A stretch of 61,258 nt of DNA from contig CALARG010000021.1 of assembly GCA_937888635.1 (NCBI GenBank), positions 1 through 61,258 on the forward strand, in the 5' to 3' direction. The translations under genes were made by a program, and so were the position numbers. Below are positions 2,673-41,617 of the stretch, piece by piece; within the stretch, counting starts at the first letter, position 1, and every line of letters begins with the position of its first letter. Below the pieces are notes generated by a model that searched no databases, was not told where the DNA came from, and saw only the letters and a list, made by a program, of their open reading frames with translations. The DNA comes from an uncultured Alphaproteobacteria bacterium (GTDB lineage: Bacteria > Pseudomonadota > Alphaproteobacteria > Rs-D84).

Positions 2673-3461
2673 TTAAAATTCAATCCCAAAGTTCACACCA
2701 AATCCAAAACCATCAACCCATTCCCAATCGCCTTCTGCAACATGGGACATTTCCTTTGTAATATATGCACCAATAAATTTGGTTTCATCAATATTATAAT
2801 TTGCACCAAATGCAAAATCCCACGCCCCCAAATTCAATTTCCACATATCTCCATCAATCCACGCGGTATATTCCGCCGCACCAACCAGGTTCCAAGAATC
2901 ATTAATCACATACTGACCATCAACACCAAAACGCATCAGATGCAACCCACCATCACGTTCATCCCAGTTAAAAGATTCAGTCCCAATGTAATCAAACATC
3001 ACATGGCCCGCAATCGTAAATCCGGCACCAACATATCCACCACGAACGCCAATGGTCCAATTATACAACGTCGTGTCTTTATCCATAAAGGATGCATGAT
3101 CCCCCCATACTGGTGCAACAGAATAAGAGGCCAATAAATCCGCCTTCCACGCACCTTGATCTAACATACGATAATTAATCCCCAACGACAACGTATTCCA
3201 CGACATAGAATCAAACCAATCCGCCTGACCCGCAGACGTACCAACAACAACCGCCATATCTTCGGTAATACCATATCCAAACTCTTCATACAGCCCTACT
3301 TCATCAATTGCCTTGGTATGCGAACCAACAGATGTCACACTATAAAAATGCCCTGCCCCCGGACGCCACAATGGATTCCCATCAATAATATTTGCCGCAT
3401 GCGCGCCTGAAATTGCAAAAAAAGCCAACAAAGAAGTCAAAGTCAATTTTTTCATAATCAT
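2673..3461 (-). CDS. Outer-membrane beta-barrel protein, paralogue B
   Basis: Signal peptide MIMKKLTLTSLLAFFAISGAHA. Shares ANIIxGNPLxRPxxGxFY, EFGYGxxxD and C-terminal F with the upstream paralogue. Ends GVNFGIEF. Confidence 0.7.
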   Translation of the reverse strand: MIMKKLTLTSLLAFFAISGAHAANIIDGNPLWRPGAGHFYSVTSVGSHTKAIDEVGLYEEFGYGITEDMAVVVGTSAGQADWFDSMSWNTLSLGINYRMLDQGAWKADLLASYSVAPVWGDHASFMDKDTTLYNWTIGVRGGYVGAGFTIAGHVMFDYIGTESFNWDERDGGLHLMRFGVDGQYVINDSWNLVGAAEYTAWIDGDMWKLNLGAWDFAFGANYNIDETKFIGAYITKEMSHVAEGDWEWVDGFGFGVNFGIEF

Positions 3462-7749: not shown

Positions 7750-8760
7750 TCAATACAGATTTTCTGCAAACATATCATCCAATAACCCATTCAAATTATT
7801 ACGAAATTCTTCTCTGTCAGATGCCCACACAACCTGGCGCATTAAAAATTTATAAACATCATCCATTGTTAAATTTGGGATTCCCGCATCACACGCAACG
7901 CGTCGCCACGCAGTTCGCGGGTCAATTAAGTGCACACCGCCACGCCCTGGGAATACCCAGTGTCCATCCTGTGGCATATCCTGCAACAAAACAATCGCCC
8001 GATCTGACAATGGACGCCCATCCCACATATCATGATTAAAATCCAAATCTTCCCACGCCATAGAAAATATTTTTGAACGCGGTGCGAAACCATAAATCAG
8101 CATATAAAACGCCGAACGCAAAATCAAATCTGGCACCCTATCAATCGCCGCAACCAGGCGATAAAATCCCGCACGATTTAGTGGGCGTATACGGCGGTTT
8201 TGCTGGATTTTTTCTAGCCCAACCACCGGGTTCGTTTTCACATACCCCATTTCCATTGCATAGTTAAAAACACTTTGCATAAATTCTTGCATACGACCTG
8301 CGATTGCACGTCCAGAAATACTTGCAATAACATTTTTTACATCTTCTGATTTAATATCAGCAATCTTTTTTTCAAACAAAGATTCCAAATGCCGATTTAC
8401 CGCCCGCACCAATTTTGCATGCGAATCTTCACCACGCCGAACCTTGTTCTGCAAATACAAATCCAAGAATTGTTTAAACGTTATCTTCTTGCGACGAATC
8501 GGGGGCTTTTTCATCGCAGCATCCAAAATATCTGGCACTGCACTGCGCGCATCTTCTATATCCACCTGGGGATAATTTCCGATTAAAATCCGTTTATCCT
8601 TGCCATGTACGCGTTTTCGCACAAAGAAAGTTTTTATTCCACGACTGGTCACATACATACGCAAACGCGGTTCTGAAATATCCTGGACGACATCAAATCC
8701 CTTGGCCGGCGCCGGCAAGTTGTCCAAGATATACGGATTAAAATAGAATTGGTGCGCCAT
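7750..8760 (-). CDS. P4-type integrase-like protein with an apparently degenerate catalytic site
   Basis: Arm-binding (DUF4102-like) N-terminus (LPAPAKGFDVVQD...RLRMYVTSRGIKTFFVRKR...IGNYPQVDIEDAR), a core-binding region, and box I Arg (GFAPRSKIFSMAWEDLDF). The HxxR box reads TMDDVYKFL, and no C-terminal H...Y nucleophile segment is visible. Confidence 0.7.
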   Translation of the reverse strand: MAHQFYFNPYILDNLPAPAKGFDVVQDISEPRLRMYVTSRGIKTFFVRKRVHGKDKRILIGNYPQVDIEDARSAVPDILDAAMKKPPIRRKKITFKQFLDLYLQNKVRRGEDSHAKLVRAVNRHLESLFEKKIADIKSEDVKNVIASISGRAIAGRMQEFMQSVFNYAMEMGYVKTNPVVGLEKIQQNRRIRPLNRAGFYRLVAAIDRVPDLILRSAFYMLIYGFAPRSKIFSMAWEDLDFNHDMWDGRPLSDRAIVLLQDMPQDGHWVFPGRGGVHLIDPRTAWRRVACDAGIPNLTMDDVYKFLMRQVVWASDREEFRNNLNGLLDDMFAENLY

Positions 8761-13002: not shown

Positions 13003-14250
13003 TTATTTAACAATAGATTCCCATTTCAAACCTTTAGTTGCATTATCATATACCAATGCACATGTTGCAGTACCATTTTCACAAGCTTCAGGCACATTCA
13101 TCTTTGCAACCGGTGTTAACGCTGCACGTGATACAGAAATTACACCATCCACTTCCGAAACAGCAGATACATATTCACCTGCGACAGCAGTATCTGCCTT
13201 ATCTAAAGCTTCAATTTTTGATTTTGCATCTGCTTTTGCATCAGCCAAAGCTTGGTCTGCTTTTGATTTTGCATCTGCCGCTGCAGTAGAAATCGCTTCA
13301 GACTTTGCCGTTGCAATTGCTGTATTCATACCTGTTGTATTAGTATAATTCTTCAACTGCTCAGTAGTAAACGACTTCGCATTTGATTCCGCTGTATTCG
13401 CCTTTGATGCCGCATCTGTCGCTGCCGCTGCTTGTGCATTTGCAATTGCGGTTGCAACATCTGTCGCGCCATCCGCTAATGTACCAATTTTATTATCAAT
13501 CTGCTTTGAAACTGAATTATCACCAGTATTTAATGCGTCAATCTGTCCCTGCAATTCCGTTTTTGCTGCACTAACCTGACTGGTCGTCTCTCCCTTTGCC
13601 GCTGCAACCGCTTCAGACTTTGCCGTTGCAATATCACCAGTCAAAGTTGTTTTTTGCGAGGCCAACTCTTCCTTGGTTGCAGAATTTGTTTCCAAGTTCG
13701 CAACATCTAATTTTAAACCAGCAACATCTTGCTTTGTCCCTGACAACGCATTGGTAATTCTGGTATCAACATCGTTCGTCATGACTTCCAGCTTATTTTT
13801 TACATACCCTGCTACAGCCGCGGTTGTCGGCGCAACTGTTGAAGTATCATTCTTGTTTTCTCCATTCTCATTAATTTGCCCAACCAAATCACCCGTGGTC
13901 ACAGAAACTTTACCATCTGTTTCTGACACTGTCTTAACATATTTACCATCTGCAACAGTAATCGTATCAACATCTAACCCTTGAACAGCCGCAGCAATTT
14001 GTGTTGAAATAGAACCATTTGCACCACCAATCGCAGCAACATCCGCTTGCAATTTCGTAATATCGCCCTGATTCTTTGTGTTATCAGTTTCCAAACTTGT
14101 AACACGTGTGTTCATTGCATTATTATACCCTGTTGCTGTTGCTTCTGCTGCCTGCTTCGCTTTATCAACATAGTCTGTTGATGCGATATCCGCGTTTGCT
14201 GCGGTAACCGCCATCATCGCAACCAAAGATGCTGTTAAGATTTTTTTCAT
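13003..14250 (-). CDS. Secreted fibre-like protein P1 (415 aa), tail-fibre-type modules
   Basis: Signal peptide MKKILTASLVAMMAVTAANA, then DIASTDYVD. Ala/Thr/Lys-rich rod. C-terminal cap ...CENGTATCALVYDNATKGLKWESIVK. Confidence 0.8.
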   Translation of the reverse strand: MKKILTASLVAMMAVTAANADIASTDYVDKAKQAAEATATGYNNAMNTRVTSLETDNTKNQGDITKLQADVAAIGGANGSISTQIAAAVQGLDVDTITVADGKYVKTVSETDGKVSVTTGDLVGQINENGENKNDTSTVAPTTAAVAGYVKNKLEVMTNDVDTRITNALSGTKQDVAGLKLDVANLETNSATKEELASQKTTLTGDIATAKSEAVAAAKGETTSQVSAAKTELQGQIDALNTGDNSVSKQIDNKIGTLADGATDVATAIANAQAAAATDAASKANTAESNAKSFTTEQLKNYTNTTGMNTAIATAKSEAISTAAADAKSKADQALADAKADAKSKIEALDKADTAVAGEYVSAVSEVDGVISVSRAALTPVAKMNVPEACENGTATCALVYDNATKGLKWESIVK

Positions 14251-14305
14251 GTTTTCCTTCCTTTCTTTTTGTTTGTTTTGTTTATTCTCTCATTTGATAT
14301 GATTT

Positions 14306-14335
14306 ATTTTATCATAAAATGCGAATCGCTGTCTA
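14306..14335 (-). promoter_or_regulatory. Putative promoter of P1 with a GANTC palindrome in the spacer
   Basis: Minus strand reads TAGACA-gCGATTCGcattttaTGa-TAAAAT (18-nt spacer, extended -10). GCGAaTCGC lies at 14321-14329. Confidence 0.45.
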
Positions 14336-14347
14336 TAATAAAATTTC

Positions 14348-16024
14348 CTATTCCGTACGACCGGCAATATCTTCCCATGCATATTCATAGGTCACCTTGC
14401 CATCGACAGTAATTTTCTTGGCCGTTAATACAAATGTACCTTCGGCGTTTTCTGATGTTGGCGCCTGAATTGCCCCCGCCAGCAACGAATTAACATCCGA
14501 CGCCAATTGATCTGCACCAACTGCATTTTTCGCAATTGTATTCGCCGTCACGGCACCAGCAGCAATATTTCCTTCTAGCACTGCCCCCGTTGCCAAATTT
14601 CCTGCCTCAACCGCACTTTCACCAATCTTACCCTTGACGATTGCGCCATCTGCAATTTTATCCTTTGTCACCGCATTATTGGCAATCTTACCTTCTGTTA
14701 CTGCATTATTGGCAATCTTACCTTCTGTTACGGCCGCATCTGCCAATTGTGCAGTTCCAATTCCATTGTCCACAATTGAAACAACACCATTTGCAATAAC
14801 AATAACGCCTTCTTGCCCGGTCAGACTAACCTGTTTTGCATCCAATGCCGCCTGCAAACCGTCAACTTTTTCAATTGACAATGTTGGAATATCCGATTCT
14901 GCCAACTCTGCCCGTGACACAGTAATAACACCGTTTTCCTGGGATACCGCTGTTACGAACTGACCAGTTGTTGTCCCATCCGCAACATCCAATCCACCCA
15001 ATGCCTCTTGGATAGAATTTTCAACAGATCCAACCGTCGCGGCAGTATCATTCAACAAAGCAATTGCCGCCTTGTTATCATTAATCTGCGCAGTCAAGTT
15101 CTTAATAGAACCTTCTGCATTTTCCCCACCTTCTAAAATCGCGATAGTATCTGCATTTGCCTTGACCTGCGCATCCAATTTAATCGTTGCCGCTTTTAGT
15201 CCCGTTTGTTCATTCAAATAATTTGTACCCGAATATGTCACACCGGTCACATCCGCTGCATTTGCCTTTAGATCAATTTCACCCTGCAATTGCGTATCTG
15301 CTGCCTCGCGCGCAGATTTTTCTGCTGCGATTGCATCCGCATTTGTTTTAACCGCACCTGCTGCCAATTCAGAAACCTTGGAATCTGCATAGTTTTGCGC
15401 TGTTTTTAAAACACCAGTCTCGGCATTATTAATCGCCGCAATCGCAGATTCATTTGCCGCGACCTTAGCATCAGTTGCATCCAGCGCAGTTTTATCCGCC
15501 TTTGTCCCCAAGGCAGATTCAACTGTCACCCCATCACCCAGACCACCAATAGTTTCTTTGATATCCGCAACATTCGTCTTCAATGTAGAAACATCACCCT
15601 GCAAGGTTGCAACACCACCTGTCAAAATTCCAACCGCATTCTCGGCAATTTTAACCGTTGCCGCATACGATGGATAGTGTTCATTTTCCGTCCCTTCTGC
15701 AGGCGCAACAACAGCACCATTTGCGTCTGTCTTAACCAAATTAGCCTTTACCTGTTGGTCTGCAACCGCTGCATTAACCGCCGCATAAATATCAGCCGCC
15801 GTCACCAGGTTTGTCCCCTGTTCAGATACAGCACCTGTTTCAACAGACACAATATTATTTTCAATCTTTACCGGCCCAGTTGCGGTCATTTTTGTTTGCA
15901 CATCCGCCAATTCTGTTTTCAAAACATCATTTAAATATTCAGTTGAAACAACGGCTGCATCTGCAACACCCGCAGACACCAGCCCCAACAGTACAGAAAA
16001 AATACCCGCAGTTAATTTTCTCAT
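14348..16024 (-). CDS. Secreted fibre-like protein P2 (558 aa)
   Basis: Signal peptide MRKLTAGIFSVLLGLVSAGVADA, then AVVSTEYLNDV. Eight decapeptide repeats (xxAVTxGKIA). Cap ...GTFVLTAKKITVDGKVTYEYAWEDI. Confidence 0.8.
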   Translation of the reverse strand: MRKLTAGIFSVLLGLVSAGVADAAVVSTEYLNDVLKTELADVQTKMTATGPVKIENNIVSVETGAVSEQGTNLVTAADIYAAVNAAVADQQVKANLVKTDANGAVVAPAEGTENEHYPSYAATVKIAENAVGILTGGVATLQGDVSTLKTNVADIKETIGGLGDGVTVESALGTKADKTALDATDAKVAANESAIAAINNAETGVLKTAQNYADSKVSELAAGAVKTNADAIAAEKSAREAADTQLQGEIDLKANAADVTGVTYSGTNYLNEQTGLKAATIKLDAQVKANADTIAILEGGENAEGSIKNLTAQINDNKAAIALLNDTAATVGSVENSIQEALGGLDVADGTTTGQFVTAVSQENGVITVSRAELAESDIPTLSIEKVDGLQAALDAKQVSLTGQEGVIVIANGVVSIVDNGIGTAQLADAAVTEGKIANNAVTEGKIANNAVTKDKIADGAIVKGKIGESAVEAGNLATGAVLEGNIAAGAVTANTIAKNAVGADQLASDVNSLLAGAIQAPTSENAEGTFVLTAKKITVDGKVTYEYAWEDIAGRTE

Positions 16025-16054
16025 AATATTCCCTTCCTTTCTTTCGTATGGTAC

Positions 16055-16084
16055 ATTATATCATATTTGCCCGAATCGTGTAAA
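16055..16084 (-). promoter_or_regulatory. Putative promoter of P2 with a GANTC motif in the spacer
   Basis: Minus strand reads TTTACA-CGATTCGggcaaataTGa-TATAAT (18-nt spacer). Confidence 0.5.
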
Positions 16085-16111
16085 GACCAAAAAAAACACT
16101 TCTATATTTTT

Positions 16112-16144
16112 ATAAAAAAAACAGGGGCATTTTTTGCCCCTGTG
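16112..16144 (-). terminator. Rho-independent terminator after P3
   Basis: ACAGGGGCA-TTTTT-TGCCCCTGT with T8 on the minus strand. Confidence 0.7.
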
Positions 16145-16161
16145 TATTAGTCAAAAAATAA

Positions 16162-17094
16162 TTATAACGATAAAGCCAATTCCATCCAATATGGATCACC
16201 ATTCTGATCAACTGACAAAACACATTTTGCATGTGCACAATTTGTACCTGGTTTTGGAACCGCATAACCTTCAACTGTTTTTTTTGCAGTATTAGCGACC
16301 GACCCTTCTTCGGTATCAGCAGCATTCAATGTCGCAATTGCACCCTGATTGGTAACCGCAATTTCATTTGTCTTTGCCAAACCTTTTTCTGTATCGTTCA
16401 CAGCGTTTGTCAAATTCGTTAAATCAGTTGCCGATGCCTTGGTTGCGATATCCGCTTTATTCTGCGCAATATCTGCTTTGACCTGTGTATCATCATAGGT
16501 TGCAGCACTCTGCGCTTCTGTAATCATTTGAACAACTGTTTTATCCGCTGGGACATCACCAATTGTTGTTTTATCAGCCTTTCCACCCAACGCAGTTTCT
16601 AAGTCCTGAACCTGTGACTGCTGAATAACAGCATTTGCAATAGAATGTGCAACCGAACCACTTTCTGTCGCCGCGCCGTTCAATTTGGTAATCGCATTTT
16701 CATTTGCAGTAATTTTTAAGTCCTGCGCCTCATCAACTTCTGCCTGGGCTGTTTTAACTGCATTTATCTGCTGTTTAACAGAACCATCTTTATTTTCGTC
16801 ACCTGTCAATGTTGCAATAGAATTTTGAATATTTTGCATGTCTTCAGACCCAACCACACCTTCGGTCTTGGTATCCAATGCCTTAATCGCAGTCGCCACA
16901 TCAGAATAGGTAGCAGACCCAACTGTAAATCCACCCTGTGGAATTGTACCAACCTTGGTATCAACAACACCAACCTTTGCATCAACATAGCCCGTTGATG
17001 CAACGCTGATTGGGTCCGCTGCGTTTGCCGCACCTGCAACACTCATCAGGATTGCCGCCATAACACCACCAAACATAATATTTTTAATTTTCAT
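16162..17094 (-). CDS. Secreted fibre-like protein P3 (310 aa)
   Basis: Start trimmed to MKIKNIMFGGVMAAILMSVAGAANA (SD GAAAGGAA upstream), then VASTGYVDAKV. Cap ...TNCAHAKCVLSVDQNGDPYWMELALSL. Confidence 0.8.
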   Translation of the reverse strand: MKIKNIMFGGVMAAILMSVAGAANAADPISVASTGYVDAKVGVVDTKVGTIPQGGFTVGSATYSDVATAIKALDTKTEGVVGSEDMQNIQNSIATLTGDENKDGSVKQQINAVKTAQAEVDEAQDLKITANENAITKLNGAATESGSVAHSIANAVIQQSQVQDLETALGGKADKTTIGDVPADKTVVQMITEAQSAATYDDTQVKADIAQNKADIATKASATDLTNLTNAVNDTEKGLAKTNEIAVTNQGAIATLNAADTEEGSVANTAKKTVEGYAVPKPGTNCAHAKCVLSVDQNGDPYWMELALSL

Positions 17095-17170
17095 TATTAT
17101 TTCCTTTCTTTTCTTTCGTTTTTTATTTTTAAATGCCACCCCAAAATATTATGGGGTGACACTATTTATA

Positions 17171-18211
17171 TTAATTTGCAGCTGGCTTAATCGCATTGTC
17201 ACCATTCAATGTGATTTCATTACCGTCTTTGTCCAAAATCTTAATTGGCGCATATGATACAGCACCCGTTGCATCAAAATTCACCAGATATGTGCCCGCC
17301 GTAGTCACAACAGAAACCTTTTTAGCAATTTCTGCTGCATTATCTGCAATCCCCTGGGTATTTGTAGCAATCGCAGCAACTTTATCTGAATCAACACCTG
17401 AATTAACCGCCTTCATCTGTGTCTCATCCAACTTTGCCTGATAATTTTCGCTCAAATTCAAATTATCAATCGCTGTCTGAACATCATCTGCCGTCTGATA
17501 ACCTTTACCCTGCAATTCGGTTTCATCAACATATTTGCCATTTGCCAAGGCATCAGCAATAGACTTTGCAACCGAACCTTCTGTTTGCGCATCTGCATTC
17601 AATTTTGCGATACCCTCCGTATTACCCTTAACATCCTGCATCAGGGTTGCAATACCTTGGCTGCCGTTTCCACCACTCAAAGTATTAATCGCCGCGGTAT
17701 TCGCCTGAATATCAGATTCAGCTTCGGTCATACGTGTTGTCAAACCCGAAATATCTTCCTTGTTGGTTGTAATTTGAGCAACCGCCTCAGAATCAATCCC
17801 AGAATTAATTGCCGCCTGTTGTTCAGTCGTCAATGTATCCTGCTTACCTGCCAAGGCTTCCTGAACAGTAATATCTTCGCCCTGTTCATTCTGCAATGTC
17901 CCAATTTTCTGATCCAAGGCATCCGACACAGACACTACATTGCCTTCTGCGTCAACACCAATCTTCTGCTCCAACGCCTCTACAGATTGTTTTGTTGCCA
18001 ACGATGACAGGTCAACATTCGCAGAAATTGTTGTTGTGCCATCTGCCTGTTCTGCAATATCAATCCCCTGCCCTTCGGTCAATTTTGCCTGCAATTTTGC
18101 ATCAGCATAGTCTTTTGAAATCAAAGACACATCTGCCGCAACCGCTGCCCCACATACGGTCGCAAATACTGCCGCCGCAAAACCAGAAAACATAATATTT
18201 TTTACTTTCAT
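17171..18211 (-). CDS. Secreted fibre-like protein P4 (346 aa)
   Basis: Signal peptide MKVKNIMFSGFAAAVFATVCGAAVA, then LISKDYADAKL. Cap ...AGTYLVNFDATGAVSYAPIKIL. Confidence 0.8.
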   Translation of the reverse strand: MKVKNIMFSGFAAAVFATVCGAAVAADVSLISKDYADAKLQAKLTEGQGIDIAEQADGTTTISANVDLSSLATKQSVEALEQKIGVDAEGNVVSVSDALDQKIGTLQNEQGEDITVQEALAGKQDTLTTEQQAAINSGIDSEAVAQITTNKEDISGLTTRMTEAESDIQANTAAINTLSGGNGSQGIATLMQDVKGNTEGIAKLNADAQTEGSVAKSIADALANGKYVDETELQGKGYQTADDVQTAIDNLNLSENYQAKLDETQMKAVNSGVDSDKVAAIATNTQGIADNAAEIAKKVSVVTTAGTYLVNFDATGAVSYAPIKILDKDGNEITLNGDNAIKPAAN

Positions 18212-18248
18212 TTTTTCCTTCCTTTCCTTTTTTAATCTTTTGAATTTT

Positions 18249-19436
18249 TTACTTCAAAATCTCTACTGACAACCATGTCACATTACCTTCTGCATCAACA
18301 GACATCAGCAATGTTTCACCCGCCGCAGGCGTCCGGCCAGCAATCTTGTCCATTGTGACTGCCTTGGCATCAATATCTGCTGTTGCAACCATATCCTTGA
18401 ATGCCAACGCTTTTAAATCTGCAGTATTTGCCTTCTTGGCCAATTCCGCATTAACAGTCTCCGTTTTTGCATAAGACCCTAATTCTGACTTGGTCGCCAA
18501 ATCAGCAGTTGCCGTTGTAATTGCACCTTGAACCTGTTGTGCTGTTTGATAGCCTGCGGCCTCTAATGTATCAACGCGACCTTCAACCGCATCAACCGTT
18601 TCAATTGTTGCGTATGTCTTGGCAACATCTTCAGACTTTGCATAACTGCTCAGATCAATATTAGAAGAATCAATAACCGCCTGGTCAATCTTGGCATTCA
18701 AATCAGTAACCGCCGTTTCCAACGCAGACTTATCCGCCTTAGTTGCAATTGCCGCCTTGTTATCTGCAACATCCTTTAACAAACCAGAATCCGCCGAACC
18801 AACAACATTTGTTATCTGTTGTGTCACCTGCTGTTCTGTCACATATGTTTCTGATGCTGTTTTTTGCGTCACATATGTATTCTGGGCATCAGTTTTGGTC
18901 AGATAATTATTTGATATATTTTGTTCCAAATTCTGAATCGTTTCTGCCGATACCTTCTTTGCCAATTCTTCATCAACATATGATTTTTCTGCCAAGCCTT
19001 CCACCGATGGGATTTCTGGCTTGTCCGACAAACTGTTATATGAACCCGTTGTCGCCACTTCAGACAACCCCGAAATATTTTCCACCGCCAACGGATTTTC
19101 AGCCGTAATCACATCCTGCTTGCCCGCCATTTCCGAGTGCAACTCATTAATCGCCGGAATTGCCAGTTTTGCCTCTGTGTCTAACTGAATCCAGTTGTCA
19201 TCAGCATCTCTGCTATTCAACATATCACGCAACACAACCTGATTCTCAAAAAGCTGATTATCGTTTGTGTTCATGGTTCTGCTCATAGGCGTAGTTGTGC
19301 TATCAACATAGTCTATAACCTCAAAAAACAAATCATCTACATACTCTTCACTTGCGTAATTTTCCGCTGAATATGCCACATTAGACAATGCAACAAAAAT
19401 ACAAAACGGCAGCAAAAAAGATGTTTTCCTTGTCAT
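18249..19436 (-). CDS. Secreted fibre-like protein P5 (395 aa)
   Basis: Signal peptide MTRKTSFLLPFCIFVALSNVAYS, then YASEEYVDD. Contains VATTGSYNSLSDKPEIPS. Cap ...AGETLLMSVDAEGNVTWLSVEILK. Confidence 0.8.
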   Translation of the reverse strand: MTRKTSFLLPFCIFVALSNVAYSAENYASEEYVDDLFFEVIDYVDSTTTPMSRTMNTNDNQLFENQVVLRDMLNSRDADDNWIQLDTEAKLAIPAINELHSEMAGKQDVITAENPLAVENISGLSEVATTGSYNSLSDKPEIPSVEGLAEKSYVDEELAKKVSAETIQNLEQNISNNYLTKTDAQNTYVTQKTASETYVTEQQVTQQITNVVGSADSGLLKDVADNKAAIATKADKSALETAVTDLNAKIDQAVIDSSNIDLSSYAKSEDVAKTYATIETVDAVEGRVDTLEAAGYQTAQQVQGAITTATADLATKSELGSYAKTETVNAELAKKANTADLKALAFKDMVATADIDAKAVTMDKIAGRTPAAGETLLMSVDAEGNVTWLSVEILK

Positions 19437-19498
19437 TTTTCTTCTCTTATCAATATTTATATTAATTCCCAGCTGTACTATTAATTTAAATCACAACC

Positions 19499-21826
19499 CT
19501 ATATTTCAGGAACAGTACCACCAGAACTGCCACCAACAATGTCACTGGTCAATTTCCATGAATACGAACACTTCTTACTGGTACATGTTGCTGACAACAA
19601 ATATTTTCCAGTCCCTGGATTTTCTGGCGTCGCCATATAGCCTGCCAAATCATCCTGACTCGCAAAACCTTCTGTCGCTGTTGTAATTGCATTTTGAACA
19701 TCGGTTGATGTCTGATAACCAGCATTTTTCAAGTTGGTTATTTCGGTCGTGTTACCATTAACCAATGCCTGCAGGGCATCCAACGCAGATGTCGTTGCAT
19801 ATCCTGACAAATCAACACTACCACCCGATGCAGCACCTGCAATCTTCTCGTCAACTTCTGCCTTGGTATAAACATTTGATGTTTTTGCATATTCTGCCAA
19901 TGAATCAGAAACCGCCTTCAATGCAGTTGCCGTCGCATAGTCACCCGACGCCTGTTTGTTGGCAATTTGCGCTTCTAAATTCGTACGCAGGGTCTCCAAT
20001 TCTTCACTTGTCACCAAATCATTCAACGCGCTTGCATCTGCCTTGGTTGCCAATTCTGCTTTGGTCGCCAGATTTGCCGTTGATGGAATTTCCGACTTGG
20101 TCGCATAATCATCCAACGCCGCACTGGTAATATACCCTGCATCATTTGTAAACACAGAAACATCAGTTGGCACAGTTGGAATCAAGGCCTTGACCCCATT
20201 AATCGCCGCAGTTAATTCCGCATCAGACGCATAGGTATCACCTAAATTATTAATTGCTGTCTGCAATGCAGTCACAGTCGCAACATCTGCCTTGCCTGAC
20301 TGCAAATCAGAAATCGCGGCATTAATTCCTGCCAGATCTGCTTCTTCTAAATAATCGCCCGCATCTTGCTTTGCTGCGATTTTATCTTCTAATGCCTGCA
20401 ATTCTGCACTGGTCGCCAATCCCGCAATTGATGGGATTTCCGGTTTATCCGACAAACTGTTATATGAACCCGTTGTTGCGACTGCCGCCAAATCACCTGT
20501 CTTGGCATAATCGGCCAACTCGGCCTTGGTTGCCAAATCTGCCGTTGCTGTCGTAATTGCACCCTGAACATCTGTTGATGTCTGATAACCAGCACTCTTT
20601 ATCGCGTTAATCTCAGACGCATTCCCACTCACTAACAGCTGCAGGGCCTCCAAGTCAGATGTTTTTGCATATCCGGACAAATCAATCTGACCTCCCGAAA
20701 CCGCATCTGCAATCTTCTGATCAACTTCTGCCTTGGTATAAGAATCACCCTTTAAATCTGCCAACGAATCAGAAACCGCCTTCAACGCAGTCGCCGTCGC
20801 ATAGTCACCCGACGCCTGTTTGTTGGCAATTTGCGCTTCTAAATTCGTACGCAGGGTCGCCAATTCTTCACTTGTCACCAAATCATTCAACGCGCTCGCA
20901 TCTGCCTTGGTTTCCAATTCTGCCTTGGTCGCTAAATTCGCTGTTGATGGAATATCTGTCAACTTGGCATAACCATCCAAACTTGGGATTTGAATTGCCA
21001 AAATCGCATTCTGTAATCTGGTTTCAACTTCACTCAATTCACCCTTTGTTGAATAAGTATTCCCCAAATTATTAATCGCTGTCTGCAATGCTGTGACCGT
21101 GCTTGCATCTGCCTTGTCAGATTCCAGTGCATTAACCGCATTCTGCAATTCCGCCAAATCAGATTCTTCTAAATAATCACCTTTATCCTGCTTTTCTGCG
21201 ATTGCGGCTTCCAATGTTGTCTTTAATGTATTTAACGCACTTGCATTTGCCTTCAGCAACAATTTCGCATCCACATCATCAACCGTTGCATACTGACTCA
21301 AATCAATCGCCTTGACCGCAGCATCCACCACACCAATCGCATCTCGCAAATCCTGTTCAGTCGCATTCAATTCGCTTTTCTTCGCATAATCCGCACTAAT
21401 CGTCGCAACCGACGCCTGCAAACTTTCAATCGCAGCCTTATCCGCACCACCTGTTTGCAAAGTCTCTACTGTATTTTTTAATTCCTGCAATTGCGCCGCT
21501 GTCGCATAATCACCCGCCGCATGCTTGGCTGAAATTTCTGCCTGCAACGCCCTTTCCAAGGCCGCCAAATCACTATGCGTTGCAAAATTCTTAAAATCAG
21601 GCATATCATGCTTTAACAAGAAGTTTGAAACATCCAGTGTTGACTTAACAACATTATCGGAAATTTCAATCCCTTCACCCGCGGTCAGGACATTTTGTTT
21701 CTGCGCCAAAGCATCATCAACATAAGTTTTACTGGCCAGATTAACAGTCGCCGCACTTGCCACACCGGCAACCGACGCCAAGATCGTTGCCATAACACCA
21801 GAAAATACAATATTATTAATTCTCAT
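19499..21826 (-). CDS. Secreted fibre-like protein P6 (775 aa), internally duplicated
   Basis: Signal peptide MRINNIVFSGVMATILASVAGVASA, then LASKTYVDDAL. Contains TTGSYNSLSDKPEIPS and VFTNDAGYITS. ~290-aa internal duplication. Cap ...GKYLLSATCTSKKCSYSWKL. Confidence 0.85.
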   Translation of the reverse strand: MRINNIVFSGVMATILASVAGVASAATVNLASKTYVDDALAQKQNVLTAGEGIEISDNVVKSTLDVSNFLLKHDMPDFKNFATHSDLAALERALQAEISAKHAAGDYATAAQLQELKNTVETLQTGGADKAAIESLQASVATISADYAKKSELNATEQDLRDAIGVVDAAVKAIDLSQYATVDDVDAKLLLKANASALNTLKTTLEAAIAEKQDKGDYLEESDLAELQNAVNALESDKADASTVTALQTAINNLGNTYSTKGELSEVETRLQNAILAIQIPSLDGYAKLTDIPSTANLATKAELETKADASALNDLVTSEELATLRTNLEAQIANKQASGDYATATALKAVSDSLADLKGDSYTKAEVDQKIADAVSGGQIDLSGYAKTSDLEALQLLVSGNASEINAIKSAGYQTSTDVQGAITTATADLATKAELADYAKTGDLAAVATTGSYNSLSDKPEIPSIAGLATSAELQALEDKIAAKQDAGDYLEEADLAGINAAISDLQSGKADVATVTALQTAINNLGDTYASDAELTAAINGVKALIPTVPTDVSVFTNDAGYITSAALDDYATKSEIPSTANLATKAELATKADASALNDLVTSEELETLRTNLEAQIANKQASGDYATATALKAVSDSLAEYAKTSNVYTKAEVDEKIAGAASGGSVDLSGYATTSALDALQALVNGNTTEITNLKNAGYQTSTDVQNAITTATEGFASQDDLAGYMATPENPGTGKYLLSATCTSKKCSYSWKLTSDIVGGSSGGTVPEI

Positions 21827-21850
21827 CTCTTCCTTCCTTTTAGCAACCTG

Positions 21851-22756
21851 TTAGTCAACCAGAACATCAACCCATTCCATTTTACCTTCTGCATTTTTCT
21901 GCAACATCAAGAAACCATTCTCGCCCACAGCTTCAGCCGCACCACCAAAATTCAGTTTGTCAGCACCGACAGAATCATCTGGAATTTCATAATCTAACAA
22001 AGCCTCGTTAACTGTTTCTTCAACGACCAAATTAACCGTCTCTTCTACAATAGGCACAACATCATCTTTCTTGGCATAATCACCCAACAAAGTATCCGTT
22101 TCTTCCTTGGTATAGTATTTATCCTGAACCCCATCCAAGGCCGCCTGCAACGCATCAATTTCTGCCATACCCACAAAGTCAGTTGCCAAATCATAAACCA
22201 TAACATCTTCGCCCTGCACAACCGTCAGAACACCATCTGCATATTCAACCGTTGTTGAACCGCCTGTTATCTGTGATAAATCTGCCGCCAACGCATCAAC
22301 ATCCAACTTAATCGCATCTAACTGTTCGGAAACACTTTCACCATTTTCACTAAAACCAACAAAGCTTTCCAGTTCTTCTACACGTTCGCGCAAATCGTTA
22401 CCTGAACTGCCCGCACCTGGCTTATTCGCCCCAGAAATTGAAGACCCACCACTAATCGCACTGGACCCAGACAAGTATTTACCAATTGACAAACGCGGCG
22501 TTGACGCTGCACGCGTTGAGCCCGAGCGGGTCGCCCCCGTATTTGCACCTGCAACATTATTCACGCGCATTGACCCCGCACGCACAGAATTAATTGCACC
22601 ACCATCCGACTTGGCCGCCGCCGCGCCAGATGCACTGGTATATGTTCCTGCCCCGCCCAGCGCACGCACCGAAGACGCACCAAAAGAAGGCATCGCCACA
22701 GATGCACACAACACACAAACGATTGACAGCGTTGATATTTTCAGTTCATTTCTCAT
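21851..22756 (-). CDS. Secreted fibre-like protein P7 (301 aa) with a Gly/Ser/Ala/Arg-rich N-terminal region
   Basis: Signal peptide MRNELKISTLSIVCVLCASVAMPSFG, low-complexity region (SVRAGSMRV..TRSGSTRAAS), then a coiled segment. Cap ...GENGFLMLQKNAEGKMEWVDVLVD. Confidence 0.75.
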   Translation of the reverse strand: MRNELKISTLSIVCVLCASVAMPSFGASSVRALGGAGTYTSASGAAAAKSDGGAINSVRAGSMRVNNVAGANTGATRSGSTRAASTPRLSIGKYLSGSSAISGGSSISGANKPGAGSSGNDLRERVEELESFVGFSENGESVSEQLDAIKLDVDALAADLSQITGGSTTVEYADGVLTVVQGEDVMVYDLATDFVGMAEIDALQAALDGVQDKYYTKEETDTLLGDYAKKDDVVPIVEETVNLVVEETVNEALLDYEIPDDSVGADKLNFGGAAEAVGENGFLMLQKNAEGKMEWVDVLVD

Positions 22757-22840: not shown

Positions 22841-23521
22841 TTAGAAATCGTATCTTACCCCAACAGAAAATGAATTATTTATAATCATATCCACATCTGT
22901 TTTCAGCCAATATCCACCGGAATACGCAACACCTTCTGCCTTGACATCTGGCCCAAACAAGAACGACAATCTATAACGAAAATCCAAACTTACACTGTCT
23001 GTTAATTTATGCGAATAACCTGCCATCAAATCAAACTTTGGCGAAACAGTGCGTTTATCCGAATCAAATGTATACCAGCTTAAATCAACCTTTGGAATTG
23101 CGATTCCCAAACCACCGCCAACATAGGCATTATTTGCGAAATCATACATCATATTAACCGACAAATATGGTATAGTTAATTTAAAATCTGCACCATAACC
23201 ACTGTCTGTAAACTGCCCGATTAAGCCACCTTCTACTTCACCACGCCAATTTGCATTTGCTACATGCCCAACCGCCAAAGAACCACCAAAAACAGGCTCA
23301 AACGAAAAACTCTCAGATTTGCCATCTATCTCCAAATCATCAGACGAGTATTTATTCTTCCAACTAAGCAGTGACATTTCGCCACGAACAACACCATACC
23401 ACGCACCATTCAACCAATGCGATGGCGCATTATCCACCGGCCTTACCACAGAATACTTTGGCGCAGAAAACGCCGGTACAGTTAACATTGCCAATACTGC
23501 AAAAGATACAATTTTTTTCAT
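22841..23521 (-). CDS. Small outer-membrane beta-barrel protein (Omp25/OMP_b-brl-like)
   Basis: Start trimmed to MKKIVSFAVLAMLTVPAFSA. Alternating beta-strand pattern and terminal ...FSVGVRYDF. First gene of the fibre locus. Confidence 0.75.
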   Translation of the reverse strand: MKKIVSFAVLAMLTVPAFSAPKYSVVRPVDNAPSHWLNGAWYGVVRGEMSLLSWKNKYSSDDLEIDGKSESFSFEPVFGGSLAVGHVANANWRGEVEGGLIGQFTDSGYGADFKLTIPYLSVNMMYDFANNAYVGGGLGIAIPKVDLSWYTFDSDKRTVSPKFDLMAGYSHKLTDSVSLDFRYRLSFLFGPDVKAEGVAYSGGYWLKTDVDMIINNSFSVGVRYDF

Positions 23522-23587
23522 AATTACCCCTTTTCCTTTTTTCCTAAGTATATCACAAAACGCACACACAACCAAACACAAAAACAT

Positions 23588-23616
23588 TTGACCGCATATA
23601 ATTTTTTTTCTATATT
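23588..23616 (+). promoter_or_regulatory. Putative ftsE promoter (transcript possibly leaderless)
   Basis: TTGACC (23588-23593), 17 nt, TATATT (23611-23616). The ATG begins 7 nt after the -10 and no SD is present. Confidence 0.45.
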
Positions 23617-23622
23617 CCAACC

Positions 23623-24417
23623 ATGGAAGACAGGACAGCAATATCATTTGCAAATGTGGCCGCCCGTTATGACGGAACGCCCGATATCTTAACCGATGTT
23701 TCATTTAACATCAGCGGTGGTGGTTTTTACTTTTTATCTGGCGCATCTGGCGCGGGAAAAACCACATTACTAAGATTAATATATCAATTACACAAACCAC
23801 ACCGTGGCCAGATAAAGTTATTTGGAAAAACAACAAATGACATGTCGCGCAACGAAATAAACAAATTACGCCAGAAAATGGCAATTGTCTTCCAAGAATA
23901 CTCATTACTATCCCATATGTCCGTATTTGATAACATCGCCCTGCCCCTGCGCGTTCGTGGCATACCAGAGGCTAAGATAAAAAAACTGGTGGCCAAGGTT
24001 CTAGATTGGGTCGGCCTGGGCAAATACGCCGACGCAAACCCCAAATCATTGTCCGGCGGGCAACAACAACGCGTATCTGTTGCACGCGCTATTATTGTTC
24101 AGCCTGCTATTTTACTGGCCGACGAACCGACCGGTAATTTAGATGACGAAAACGCATCACGCCTGATGGAATTATTTATCCAAATGAACAAAATGTTTGG
24201 CACAACAATTATTTTGGCCACGCACAGTAAAAAGTTAATGGAAACATACAAATTCCCAGTTATTCGTGTTGATAACCATCGGGTCGTTTTTACCGGCAAA
24301 TCCGCACCATCTGAACCCAAGACTGATTCAGAACCTAAGAAAGTATGGCGTGGTCCAAAGCCACAAAATTATTTCACAGAATTATCTAAACAATTTGACG
24401 ATATTGGGAACGCATAA
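23623..24417 (+). CDS. ftsE: Cell-division ABC transporter ATPase FtsE
   Basis: Walker A GASGAGKTTLL, signature LSGGQQQRV, Walker B ILLADEPTGNLD. Confidence 0.9.
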   Translation: MEDRTAISFANVAARYDGTPDILTDVSFNISGGGFYFLSGASGAGKTTLLRLIYQLHKPHRGQIKLFGKTTNDMSRNEINKLRQKMAIVFQEYSLLSHMSVFDNIALPLRVRGIPEAKIKKLVAKVLDWVGLGKYADANPKSLSGGQQQRVSVARAIIVQPAILLADEPTGNLDDENASRLMELFIQMNKMFGTTIILATHSKKLMETYKFPVIRVDNHRVVFTGKSAPSEPKTDSEPKKVWRGPKPQNYFTELSKQFDDIGNA

Positions 24418-26988: not shown

Positions 26989-27747
26989 TTATCGCCTGTT
27001 ATCCTGATACTGCCGTTCTTTCTGTTGCGCCTCTTCATACCCTTTACGAATTCCTGCCTGCAAAACATCTAAGCATTTCTGAAATCTCTTTTTCTTACCC
27101 AAATCTTTATATTGAGAACATTTATATTTATCGCCCGCATCATCCACTTCATCAACTTCTGTTTTTCCAGAACTAGACAACATAACCGAAAAATCCTTTG
27201 CCAACTGCTTGCGCAATTCGGTCGTCAAATTTGCACCATTATTTGACGAATTATAAATTGTCGTCAAATTTCCATTCAAACATTCAAAAACCTTTAATGT
27301 TGATATTTCGCGATTACAATCATAAACACCCGCCATATGAATATTAGGATTACCTGATTCAAAACGCTCGCTGCCCCCTGATGAAGAAGACGAACCGCCA
27401 CTTGACCCAGATGATGCGCCCTTGGCCTCTAACGAAGTGGTTAAAATCGCCTTTTCCAGTTGCGTTTTCAATCTGCGCAACATAGATTCCATTTGTTCAT
27501 ATTGCTTATACATCTGTTGTGTAATAACCGTTGTCTTCATCGCAATAACATCACGCATCAGTCCCTTGTCCGCGCCAGATGGATTTTTCGTATTTCCGAT
27601 ATTATATGCATGCGTTGAACACAGTGCCAATTCCGCCACAATCATATCATTATCGTCGTTATCACAACCATTTTCCGCGGCAACCACCGGCACAGTCAGC
27701 AATGCCAGAACCGAAAAACCAACCAAGATATTTTTTACTTTTTTCAT
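26989..27747 (-). CDS. Secreted Cys-containing protein (252 aa), unknown family
   Basis: Signal peptide MKKVKNILVGFSVLALLTVPVVAA, a Ser/Gly linker and 7 Cys. Motif LCSTHAYNIGNT is shared with 42716-43630. Confidence 0.6.
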   Translation of the reverse strand: MKKVKNILVGFSVLALLTVPVVAAENGCDNDDNDMIVAELALCSTHAYNIGNTKNPSGADKGLMRDVIAMKTTVITQQMYKQYEQMESMLRRLKTQLEKAILTTSLEAKGASSGSSGGSSSSSGGSERFESGNPNIHMAGVYDCNREISTLKVFECLNGNLTTIYNSSNNGANLTTELRKQLAKDFSVMLSSSGKTEVDEVDDAGDKYKCSQYKDLGKKKRFQKCLDVLQAGIRKGYEEAQQKERQYQDNRR

Positions 27748-27767: not shown

Positions 27768-29918
27768 TTAAAACCCAATCTTCCTTATACACTCACCATT
27801 AGAGTTCATAGTACCATCATGCCAAATTGACTGACAATCGCACGCCCCATTAGTCCATTTACCACCACTGTTCTCACAGGCAGATCTTCGCGCCCCCCCT
27901 TCAACAGCTGATGTTAATACGTCCTTCTTTATACACCGACCCGCAACTTGATAAGAATCATCCCCGCACATACAATATGCATCATAATTATTCGATACCC
28001 ATGTTCCGCCACTATTCTTACAATCATTCACCGTCTGTGCAGTCGCAGCAACCGCTGCCCCCTCTGCGGTAATCGTAGTTTTCTCTTTACGTTTTATCAC
28101 CTTTCCATCTGTCGCATCATACCCACAGCGATCCCCATAAACACGACAACGTTTTTCTGTCTCGGACCATTCAACACGACACCCAGATTCAATCACTAAA
28201 TACTGGGCGGCGCCATCCCGTACCAGCGCATTGTCTTTCTTGTATCCTTCACACCCCTCTTTGGTACTGATTGAACCAACATATTCTGACAGACCCGTTT
28301 CCACCCATCCCACAGAATAACTAAGCGCACCACCGGTCACAAACTCGCGCTCCAGTGCCTTGGTCGTGGTACAAATCGTCTTGGGCAGTTTTTTTGTCTT
28401 AACCGCATTCATCAGACGCTGATAAGAATCTTCGTTAACTGCGCAATACTTTAATCTGTCAATATCCGTATTTCCACCCTGAACATAGCGATTACTAATC
28501 GCAAATTCTGGTGCATCCTGGGCAATAATGCGTTCCAGGGTATCTAAATCCAATGTTGCACCATTACGACTGCTGCGACGACCAAATATCGCAATAGATT
28601 CCAACGCCGATGTTGCACATCCAACACGAACCAGTTTATCACCATCATCGGCCTCGTTAATCCATTCACGCAAAACCACATCCCGATCTGTACCTGTGCC
28701 ACCAATCAATTCTGTCAATGTACAACGCGAATCATCCTGGGGCGGTACGACCATCCCGGGCGTACATTCCATTCCACCTTTGACCGCACCAACCGCAATT
28801 TTATCACCGTCTTTCTTTACATATATCGCACCCTTGACGGAACGACCATTTTTACATGTGTCCTCGGTATAATGACCTTCTTGGTGTTTCCCGCCTGATG
28901 TATCTGTGGTACACATAAACTTGCCCCACTGATTACAGGCGCCACTTAACATCATAATAACATCCGAAACATCCGCACCAACCGCCAACGCCATTTCCAG
29001 ACCTTCGTAGGCCTCGTCTACAATCGCATCATACGGGTCAAAGAATCCCATTGCCTTTTGCTTGAAAATTTTCACGCGTTTTGGACCCGAACAGTTATTT
29101 CCACGCGTATCACAGCCTGCATATGTAAAGATATCTTGCATTGTTGCATTCAGTGTTTTTAACGCAACCTCGGCATTTTCAATTTTAGTTAAAATCTGAC
29201 CTGAAATTTGATTGCGCATCAAAACATCCGCAGAAACACCCTTCTCTATCGCCTCTGCCTGGGCATCACTAACATTTGACAAACTCTGCGACGCTGCCGC
29301 CTGGGCCTGTGCCTGGGCGGTTGCCGCGGCCGCCGCCTGGGCCTGCGCCTGGGCTGCTAATGCTTTTTGTTCATCCAGTGCCGCCTGCATTTGCTGCATC
29401 TGTTGTGCGTTTTGCTGTTGCATTTCATATTGCATCTGCTGCATTTGTTGCTGCATCTGCTGCATCTGGGCACTGTTCTGTGCTGCTGCCGCCTGGGCCG
29501 CTGCATTTTGCGCCGCCAACTGCTGTTGCTGTACCTTGGCATTTGCATCGGCCACAATTTGTGCAGATATATAATCCACTAAATCATTGCCATGCTTTTT
29601 ACATGTATCATTACTGTTAACGCACCCCTCAACAATCGTTCGCGCAATATCCATCGTTGTACATCCCGCACACTTTGGCTGTGCACAACGCAAAATCAGC
29701 GAATTACAATTACCAAAATCCGCCTTTGGCTTTTGCCCAACCGCACCAGTTGCCTGGGTACGACTGTTCATTATTTGATTCCAATTATTATTATTTGTTG
29801 CACCACTGTCCCCATTCCATGCGGTCAAATTACTGCCCGCAGTTGTTGCAACATTCGCACCCGCGACGCCCGGCATCGCGCACAAAACCAACAATAAAAA
29901 AGACGTCAGCAATTTCAT
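27768..29918 (-). CDS. Large secreted Cys-rich protein (716 aa) with a Gln/Ala-rich low-complexity segment
   Basis: Signal peptide MKLLTSFLLLVLCAMPGVAGA, a Q/A tract (QQMQQQMQQMQYEMQQQNAQQMQQMQ..AQAQAQAAAA), and C-terminal Cys-rich modules (CKNSGGTW..CMCGDDSYQVAGRC; CENSGGKW..CDC..GEC). Confidence 0.7.
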   Translation of the reverse strand: MKLLTSFLLLVLCAMPGVAGANVATTAGSNLTAWNGDSGATNNNNWNQIMNSRTQATGAVGQKPKADFGNCNSLILRCAQPKCAGCTTMDIARTIVEGCVNSNDTCKKHGNDLVDYISAQIVADANAKVQQQQLAAQNAAAQAAAAQNSAQMQQMQQQMQQMQYEMQQQNAQQMQQMQAALDEQKALAAQAQAQAAAAATAQAQAQAAASQSLSNVSDAQAEAIEKGVSADVLMRNQISGQILTKIENAEVALKTLNATMQDIFTYAGCDTRGNNCSGPKRVKIFKQKAMGFFDPYDAIVDEAYEGLEMALAVGADVSDVIMMLSGACNQWGKFMCTTDTSGGKHQEGHYTEDTCKNGRSVKGAIYVKKDGDKIAVGAVKGGMECTPGMVVPPQDDSRCTLTELIGGTGTDRDVVLREWINEADDGDKLVRVGCATSALESIAIFGRRSSRNGATLDLDTLERIIAQDAPEFAISNRYVQGGNTDIDRLKYCAVNEDSYQRLMNAVKTKKLPKTICTTTKALEREFVTGGALSYSVGWVETGLSEYVGSISTKEGCEGYKKDNALVRDGAAQYLVIESGCRVEWSETEKRCRVYGDRCGYDATDGKVIKRKEKTTITAEGAAVAATAQTVNDCKNSGGTWVSNNYDAYCMCGDDSYQVAGRCIKKDVLTSAVEGGARRSACENSGGKWTNGACDCQSIWHDGTMNSNGECIRKIGF

Positions 29919-37627: not shown

Positions 37628-37661
37628 CAAAAAAAAACCGGCAATTGCCGGTTTTTTTTAT
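37628..37661. terminator. Bidirectional terminator (perfect 16-bp palindrome)
   Basis: ACCGGCAATTGCCGGT flanked by A9 and T8. Confidence 0.75.
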
Positions 37662-41258: not shown

Positions 41259-41617
41259 GCCGTTTTCTCCTTTTTCCTTCCTTTCAAAAGAGTTTCCTGC
41301 CCGAACAAGGTTGTAAAAACCACCCACACAAAACACCATTTTTCAATTGAATCACGGTATTTTATATTGCCCTACTTTAAACTCTCTCGCGCCATTAATG
41401 TTTTTTGGATTAATTTTATTTTAGACATTTAAAATAAAACCAATCCTGTTTTTTTGATTACCTTTTTCTCGTTTTGGATACGACAGATAAGTTAAAATAT
41501 TATTTTCCATTTACAAGCAAATCTTGCCCCAAAATTTCACTTTTATTTTTTGACAACGATTCGTTTTTTTGCCTATTTTCTGCCCTTTGTATATACACTG
41601 TATAGACAATTTTTTTA

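Follow-up and report, generated by a model that had tools for sequence, protein, structure and literature searches.

Why should a gut bacterium carry pieces of phage tail fibre behind signal peptides on its own chromosome? The question is raised by a stretch of DNA of 61,258 nucleotides, here called the window, from an uncultured member of the Alphaproteobacteria (order Rs-D84; assembly GCA_937888635.1, contig CALARG010000021.1, positions 1 to 61,258). Two of its genes, P5 and P6, encode signal-peptide-bearing proteins with peptides that a sequence-only reading of the window had taken for hallmarks of phage tail fibres, domesticated for use in the cell's own envelope. P5 and P6 prove to be two of seven tandem minus-strand paralogs at 13003-22756, and the best-supported reading of this family is that it comprises Sec-exported fibrous proteins. 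Phage-fibre peptides behind signal peptides are already precedented, in the mosaic adhesive trimer (MAT) fibres of Bdellovibrio, and are common; what is undescribed, and biologically suggestive, is the array itself, a row of fibre genes that is found across the order, evolves fast and exchanges tips, in an uncultured gut bacterium of reduced genome.

Fibre modules in P5 and P6

Both proteins, encoded on the minus strand, begin with a signal peptide. In P5 (395 aa, 18249-19436) this occupies residues 1-23 and is followed by a conserved N-domain, a single copy of the module that we call M1, a variable middle region and a C-terminal hairpin box (GETLLMSVDAEGNVTWLSVEILK). In P6 (775 aa, 19499-21826) the signal peptide, residues 1-25, is followed by an ASKTYVD box and a duplicated fibre body, with one copy of M1 and one of a second module, M2, about 100 residues apart, and then by a C-terminal tip that contains a pair of cysteine residues. 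Sequence reading and ortholog alignment place M1 at S125-V145 of P5 (SEVATTGSYNSLSDKPEIPSV, 19002-19064). In P6, M1 spans A448-I467 (AVATTGSYNSLSDKPEIPSI, 20426-20485) and matches the phage consensus LATVATSGSYNDLSDKPTIP, while M2 (PTVPTDVSVFTNDAGYIT, 20126-20179) has the same register as TVPTNVSAFTNDAGYLT in viral open reading frames (ORFs); residues V556-L571 of P6, at 20114-20161, read VSVFTNDAGYITSAAL. The peptides are thus present where they had been placed by the sequence-only reading, and behind real signal peptides.

The copies of GSYNSLSDKP in P5 and P6 belong to a 77-nt direct DNA repeat (18991-19067 and 20415-20491) that is 82% identical, implying that the two M1 segments are paralogous copies of one module and not a chance resemblance. 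M1 could be aligned in 45 of 45 P5 orthologs, down to 43% identity, with G131, L136 and P143 invariant, and the positions of both M1 and M2 are kept in P6 orthologs to ~51% identity. This positional conservation indicates that M1 and M2 have long belonged to the P5 and P6 lineages and are not recent insertions. Elsewhere in the family they are multiplied: two positional orthologs of gene A, the last paralog of the array, consist almost entirely of M1/M2 stacks. One of these (P0194, from another lineage) has five M1 copies, one of which runs directly into M2; the other (P0302) was assigned from its N- and C-terminal sequence.

Distribution of the modules in phages and cells

The association of both motifs with phages is borne out. 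In IMG/VR, scanned with degenerate DNA patterns, F-x-N-D-A-G-Y-[ILM]-T occurs in at least 118 stretches, compared with a handful expected by chance, and G-x-Y-N-D-L-T-[DN]-K-P in at least 119, compared with fewer than one, the chance figures being our own information-content estimates. Both modules are longer than the motifs originally recognised. M1 extends to L(A/S)xVA(T)(S/T)G(S/D)Y(N/D)(D/S)L(S/T)(D/N)KP(T/E)IP, and the viral M2 consensus, (T/V)(V/I)PT(N/D)VS(A/S)F(T/N)NDAGY(L/I)T, is in the same register as TVPTDVSVFTNDAGYIT in P6. Phage M1 often runs straight into M2, giving a fixed 44-residue unit, with the pattern G[SD]YNDLTNKPTIPTVPTNVSAFTNDAGY[IL]T, of which 208 distinct versions were collected; sequence and profile searches of the PDB found no chain with the M1-M2 module, and the structure of the fused unit appears to be unsolved. 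A hydrophobic N-terminus is found in just 3 of 133 rows of motif-bearing viral ORFs. Chance or low-complexity resemblance is ruled out as an explanation for the modules, given matches in register over 17-22 residues, the numbers of viral stretches, and the 4122 protein clusters described below. A literature search for the motif strings found nothing relevant.

Judged from sequence similarity, the strongest phage link of the array lies in gene B (558 aa, 14348-16024, minus strand). The C-terminal AVTxGKIA repeats of this protein (residues ~409-535, window 14420-14800) give tblastn matches to 196 phage records, with E values down to 5e-18. The genes concerned carry the annotations host specificity protein J, tail fiber or minor tail protein, and phages of Alphaproteobacteria are among their carriers; gene B also matches the PHROG tail-fibre family phrog_892 (E = 1.1e-9). 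Other direct tblastn matches are weak, and are to head fibres of crAss-like phages and tail fibres of Pseudomonas jumbo phages and cyanophages. Distant M1-bearing matches of P5 lack a signal peptide and contain Phage_tail_C, Gp53-like_C or PTR domains. Whole P6 had no match at E <= 1e-3 in INPHARED (50,697 phage genomes), and no relative of the fibre family turned up among 2.9 million viral contigs scanned by pattern.

The modules are not, however, confined to phages. When P6 residues 440-580 were compared exhaustively by HMMER with 1.84 billion cluster representatives, 4122 clusters matched at E <= 1e-3, 1014 of them at E <= 1e-10, and the best 150 of the 4122 were sorted by type. No signal peptide is present in 71 of these 150, and all eight of the 71 that were scanned match PHROG tail-fibre or tail families. 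In a further 59, all exported proteins, the signal peptide is of the ...LFAQ↓APEKFTYQAVVRN type (arrow, cleavage site) and goes with a YQAVVR N-terminus and up to 23-25 copies of M1/M2; seven of seven scanned have Fib_succ_major (PF09603/TIGR02145) C-terminal domains. The other 20 clusters are the Rs-D84 fibre family itself. The genomic context of one Fib_succ_major-type protein was read, and is a 306-kb contig with asd, a glycoside hydrolase family 2 (GH2) gene, batA and genes of the type IX secretion system (T9SS) type, that is, a Bacteroidota-like chromosome. (The Fib_succ_major-type proteins fall within our set P0254-P0389; an example is P0268, at L267:8001-12614.) The peptides of P5 and P6 are thus authentic fibre modules, in full register, but the description of them as a phage hallmark does not hold, and the earlier caution that such motifs might prove common in non-phage proteins is in part justified by these 59 cellular clusters. 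The same 59 clusters imply that phage-fibre modules behind signal peptides are widespread in gut bacteria. The 44-residue M1-M2 module is very abundant (the 4122 clusters are defined at 50% identity) and is common to phage fibres and the exported proteins of two phyla; it could aid both the annotation of fibres and the study of how phages and cells exchange fibre parts.

Signal peptides and anatomy of the proteins

Are the signal peptides genuine? All seven of the seven paralogs have one, and conservation at the N-terminus, together with the ribosome-binding sites, shows that these are true Sec-type signals. The N-terminal sequence MK(V/I)KNI(A/V/M)FSGFAA..(A.A)↓A.VNLASK.YVD is kept in ~117 of the 120 P6 homologs listed, to ~33% overall identity; in P6 itself the signal peptide is MRINNIVFSGVMATILASVAGVASA↓AT (21752-21826, minus strand). 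The P5-type N-terminus, MTRKTSF...AYS↓AENYA..YVD, is likewise conserved among P5 orthologs. Genes A, B, C, D and P6 each have a strong ribosome-binding site (AAAGGAAGGA) at a distance of 5-9 nt ahead of the ATG; the one before P5 is weaker. An alternative gene call starts P5 seven residues later and still retains the hydrophobic core and cleavage site. Mis-called starts, a concern named beforehand, are ruled out by the same two lines of evidence. The DNA encoding the signal peptide is itself repeated in three paralogs (17017-17094, 18134-18211 and 21749-21826). Across the family, the mature body is free of cysteine in 185 of 187 proteins, and 58 of the 187 have exactly two cysteines within the last 60 residues, flanking a predicted hairpin. 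We read these cysteine-free bodies with paired cysteines at the tip as pointing to a disulfide formed outside the cytoplasm.

The paralogs all differ in length (301-775 aa), and three features are common to every one: a signal peptide ending in A-x-A, an A-S-K-x-Y-V-D (or variant) box at the predicted mature N-terminus, and a C-terminal box of the form G-x-Φ-Φ...(D/E)G...W-x-x-Φ. The fibre body is rich in Ala, Thr and Asp and is put together from short modules found in phage tail and head fibres as well: M1, M2, LTAGxGIxI and AVTxxKIA repeats. In P6 it includes an internal duplication of ~870 nt, in which 19637-20116 (the distal copy) is 75-91% identical to 20507-20980; M1 and M2 sit between the two copies. 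A resemblance of the C-terminal box (G-x-Φ-Φ..DG..W) to the foldon was considered and rejected, with a hhalign probability of 10.8% against the T4 foldon and no foldon match in a profile search of the PDB.

Comparison of orthologs indicates that these proteins are mosaics, with conserved N-termini and with tips that are swapped between near-identical orthologs. P6 orthologs with 80-89% identity in the body have 25-29% in the last 75 residues; in one other ortholog the body is 69% identical and the tip 87%. These alignments show recombination to be the means by which the tips of the large proteins are exchanged.

A conserved and fast-evolving chromosomal locus

The array sits between ftsEX and lepA, downstream of a gene for a small outer-membrane barrel protein. 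Its carriers are members of the order Rs-D84, that is, Candidatus Enterousia and relatives. Named homologs of P6 are all hypothetical proteins from metagenome-assembled genomes (MAGs) labelled "Alphaproteobacteria bacterium", and a scan of species-representative genomes with the family N-terminus found 30 loci, all of them in Candidatus Enterousia or unnamed alphaproteobacterial MAGs of animal or human gut.

The gene order is conserved. Divergent ftsE and ftsX on one side, then barrel gene, G-type gene and fibre genes, followed by a VTT-domain gene and lepA on the other, occur in this order in 27 of 29 Rs-D84 loci, and also in a relative (L031) whose P6 homolog is 37% identical. A G-type gene (gene G is the first paralog of the array) follows the barrel gene in 29 of the 29 loci with matches, and the barrel gene is directly upstream of fibre genes in 27 of 29. 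Family genes are found mostly in arrays of two to four or more, and the cluster as a whole comprises the single barrel gene and six or seven fibre paralogs. Between genomes, FtsE is 80-89% identical and LepA 96-98%, compared with 36-69% for the barrel protein and 32-60% for the G-type protein. Conserved order combined with divergence that is fast compared with the neighbours implies that this envelope locus is old, has been inherited vertically and evolves fast, and that it is not a prophage.

Proposed function

What, then, might such an array do? Published Rs-D84 genomes are ~0.75-1.0 Mb; they encode no tricarboxylic acid (TCA) cycle, respiratory chain, flagellum or standard transporters, and these bacteria have been suggested to depend on partners (PMC12306168). 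By analogy with known fibres, we consider it fairly probable that the paralogs are exported chains that oligomerise, are held at the envelope and use outward-facing tips to bind ligands on partner cells, host mucus or particles. The chains would be exported unfolded through Sec and lose their signal peptides. Once beyond the cytoplasm they would assemble into oligomers, probably trimers, as do the phage and MAT fibres that they resemble. The conserved N-terminal end would stay attached to the envelope, with the co-encoded barrel protein as a possible anchor, and the variable C-terminal tips would point outwards to bind such ligands. The array would then be the recognition and attachment apparatus of an organism devoid of respiration, flagella and standard transporters, for which dependence on partners has been proposed.

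Several observations weigh against this proposal. No family was matched above threshold by any of the seven paralogs in Pfam and NCBIfam scans, and PDB sequence and profile searches with P6, gene B, a consensus peptide and a module profile gave only weak, unrelated matches, the sole one below 0.001 being a compositional alignment to enoyl-CoA hydratase; given this lack of family and PDB matches, the adhesin role is argued from analogy. Monomer AlphaFold models of P5 and P6, built with family alignments, have a mean predicted local distance difference test (pLDDT) score of ~51, and heptad periodicity is weak (z = 0.5-2.1). Nor was a route for secretion or anchoring across the outer membrane found. 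The OMP_b-brl family, to which the barrel protein belongs, forms small barrels, and a small barrel suits an anchor better than a translocon.

The low-confidence models show many short helices, M1 and M2 in the linkers between helices, and a terminal β-hairpin; the short helices and the hairpin, like the low-complexity composition, speak for a fibrous character. A long coiled coil is not supported, heptad periodicity being only weakly raised. A homolog search with a 48-residue consensus gave 30 short fragments only.

A more ambitious version of the adhesin proposal, which we regard as possible but doubtful, is that Rs-D84 bacteria are obligately partner-dependent and that their barrel gene and fibre genes together form a phage-style host-recognition apparatus, built from the fibre vocabulary of phages, whose swappable tips would determine the partner cell or host surface to which the bacterium attaches. 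In function it would then be an independently evolved cellular counterpart of both phage receptor-binding proteins and MAT fibres.

Alternative explanations

Two alternatives concern where the array and its modules came from. The array could be the remnant of a degraded prophage or gene-transfer agent, with ordinary tail-fibre genes; the PHROG tail-fibre matches, the phage tblastn matches of gene B and an integrase-like ORF at 7750-8760 would fit such a remnant. Its neighbours in the window are housekeeping genes, however (rpsG, yceG, fabF, lepA, rbfA-region genes, ftsEX, a plsC-like gene, tolB, dnaJ, a gyrB-type topoisomerase gene and dnaA), scans of the window genes found no capsid, portal, terminase, tail or lysis genes, every member of the family has a signal peptide, and the same locus recurs in 27 of 29 species of the order. 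Gene context, order-wide synteny and the lack of relatives on viral contigs effectively refute this alternative. The integrase-like ORF (minus strand, 336 aa) matches Arm-DNA-bind_3 and Phage_int_M with no match to a catalytic domain, and since its placement with respect to lepA is matched in another Rs-D84 lineage (L266:7892-8902) it looks like a conserved resident gene, not the marker of a mobile element. The modules themselves, M1, M2 and others, might be a generic vocabulary of fibres, born in cells or shared, that phages borrowed or co-inherited, which would leave the reading as exported fibres unchanged. Within the P5 and P6 lineages they are ancient and fixed in position, no phage protein resembles P6 beyond them, and signal-peptide N-termini of cellular types are present in 79 of the best 150 clusters (59 of Fib_succ_major type and 20 of Rs-D84). 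Against this, the modules range across cyanophages, Pseudomonas jumbo phages, crAss-like phages and phages of actinobacteria and Alphaproteobacteria, while only two groups among the cellular proteins examined carry them. We rate the generic vocabulary as conceivable but rather doubtful. A distribution that is broad across phage hosts and narrow in cells would favour a viral reservoir, and the domestication of viral modules in the Rs-D84 fibres, as envisaged in the sequence-only reading, is plausible on that distribution; the modules may instead have passed from cell to phage, or come from a shared pool.

Two further alternatives concern what the proteins do and where they end up. They might form a structural coat, S-layer-like or fibrillar, or else scaffold the envelope, and so protect the cell or give it its shape, with tip variation as an escape from phages or host immunity instead of a choice of ligand. 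Such a coat would suit the many abundant-looking paralogs with strong ribosome-binding sites, the low-complexity, Ala/Thr-rich composition, and an order-wide locus beside envelope genes that diverges faster than its neighbours. Seven lengths between 301 and 775 aa suit a lattice poorly, though, no similarity to known S-layer families was seen in the Pfam and NCBIfam scans, and the swapping of discrete tip cassettes between near-identical proteins is the pattern of receptor-binding proteins, so that we think a coat unlikely. Still less likely, in our judgement, is retention inside the envelope, whether by an uncleaved signal peptide that serves as an anchor or as a periplasmic spacer or tether between the membranes. 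The N-terminal hydrophobic segment is conserved beyond the needs of simple Sec targeting, and the lack of an identified outer-membrane export route would be accounted for; but the A-x-A cleavage motifs are clear and lead into a conserved mature N-terminal box, and a periplasmic tether would hardly account for recombining tips on chains of up to ~800 residues.

Gut metagenomes of farm animals, chickens, horses and humans repeatedly contain Enterousia and other Rs-D84 bacteria, which have never been cultured. With its ~1% share of such a genome, its order-wide conservation and its fast evolution, the 10-kb array is a strong candidate for the set of molecules linking these cells to whatever they depend on, and offers a concrete handle for enrichment, labelling and the identification of partners.

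Other features of the window

The barrel gene (22841-23521, minus strand) matches Pfam OMP_b-brl with E = 2.9e-7 and is the first gene of the conserved cluster. As listed, its ORF runs from 22841 to 23704 on the minus strand, with an N-terminal extension of ~60 residues that overlaps the divergent ftsE start (23623-24417, plus strand); the true start is likely to be MKKIVSF at 23521, which is preceded by a purine-rich ribosome-binding site. Downstream of it on the same strand come gene G (301 aa, 21851-22756), with a signal peptide, a Gly/Ser/Ala-rich low-complexity region and a C-terminal hairpin box (..GFLMLQKNAEGKMEWVDVLVD), then P6 and P5, and then the family paralogs D (346 aa, 17171-18211), C (310 aa from the start MKIKNIMF, 16162-17094) and B, also a family paralog. 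Gene A (415 aa, 13003-14250) ends the array and has a cysteine pair in its tip. A strong terminator-like hairpin lies just past the stop codon of gene C (16143-16121, minus strand) and another follows gene A (12984-12963), and a promoter-like site with an 11/12 match and an extended -10 element precedes gene B (16084-16055, minus strand). The hairpin after gene C and the site before gene B suggest that the array is transcribed in at least three units; consensus scans are suggestive of the units G-P6-P5-D-C, B and A.

Elsewhere in the window, four more minus-strand ORFs encode signal peptides (26989-27747, 27768-29918, 37658-39904 and 42716-43630), and the two of them that were scanned gave no convincing Pfam family. 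All four are possible further envelope or secreted proteins of this reduced genome. The larger pair, of 716 and 748 aa, are Gln/Ala-rich or of low complexity in the N-terminal half and Cys-rich in the C-terminal half. At 1812-2630 and 2673-3461, also on the minus strand, lies a tandem pair of paralogous ORFs that have signal peptides and share the motifs NGNPL(W/Y)RP...YNWT(I/V)G..., with one weak Phenol_MetA_deg match; they probably encode outer-membrane barrel proteins. GC skew is negative across 1-61258 (cumulative ~-7), with no change of sign around dnaA (39972-41339), implying that the replication origin is probably not beside dnaA within the window.

Comparison with known systems

How does the array compare with fibres that are already known? 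The MAT fibres of Bdellovibrio bacteriovorus are cell-surface proteins with a signal peptide, a conserved N-domain, a trimeric phage-like fibre and swapped tips (PMC10769870). They are ~1000 aa in length, with a β-rich N-domain of ~130 aa, bodies formed of a β-helix or prism, and tips with S74, TNF-like, C-type lectin or novel sandwich domains (PMC10769870). Like the MAT proteins, the Enterousia proteins are encoded by the cell, have a signal peptide and then a conserved N-terminal element, would form a long phage-related fibre, occur as many paralogs and exchange their tips; the proposed orientation, with the conserved N-terminus at the cell and the variable tip outwards, is also the same. 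There are differences, however, in size and construction. The Enterousia proteins have 300-800 aa, predicted short helices and a simple hairpin tip. In place of the large β-rich N-domain of the MAT proteins, the Rs-D84 paralogs have in common a short box of ~15-45 residues (ASKxYVD..LTAGxGIxI), which appears as helix or coil in low-confidence models. The Enterousia sequences searched gave no convincing match in the PDB, which should include the deposited MAT tip structures. The setting differs too: MAT genes are scattered, whereas the Enterousia genes lie in one tandem array, in a reduced-genome gut alphaproteobacterium that is not known to be a predator.

The phage fibres that carry M1 and M2 (PHROGs 17509, 9729 and 31460) share with the Rs-D84 proteins the modules in register, the companion boxes xxYVDxxL..K and LTAGxGIxI, and a mosaic, repeat-rich architecture. 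In contrast with P5 and P6 they have no signal peptide, are encoded in phage genomes and often have Phage_tail_C, Gp53-like_C or other tip domains, and their M1 and M2 are usually fused, with many repeats, where those of P5 and P6 are single and separate. Set beside a phage tail fibre, the array thus has the shared modules, but neither the phage-genome setting nor the signal-peptide-free N-terminus. A similar partial likeness is seen for gene B, whose C-terminal 159 residues align, with E values to 5e-18, with (N/D)A(I/V)TxxKI-repeat proteins of Paracoccus phage Pkon1 and of roseophage DSS3 phages. Only the repeat block is shared, and gene B, unlike those proteins, has a signal peptide and the N- and C-terminal boxes of the family.

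Trimeric autotransporter adhesins of the YadA/Oca type are Sec-exported surface adhesins, and T4 fibritin is a segmented helical fibre with a C-terminal β-hairpin nucleus. The Rs-D84 proteins are probably fibrous like both, and the helices and terminal hairpin predicted for P5 and P6 in low-confidence models resemble the latter. Unlike YadA/Oca proteins, the paralogs have no YadA_anchor barrel or other autotransporter domain in Pfam, and their C-termini are short hairpin boxes.

Finally, the Bacteroidota Fib_succ_major proteins, which are exported and have a stalk of many M1/M2 copies, indicate that these modules work in exported proteins. They differ from the Rs-D84 fibres in the type of signal peptide, in their N-domain (APEKFTYQAVVRN), in their length of 700-2600 aa and in their globular tips, and no Fib_succ_major domain was found by Pfam or NCBIfam in the seven paralogs. 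They belong to a different phylum, and the one locus that was read contains no tandem array of the kind that the Rs-D84 bacteria keep between ftsEX and lepA.

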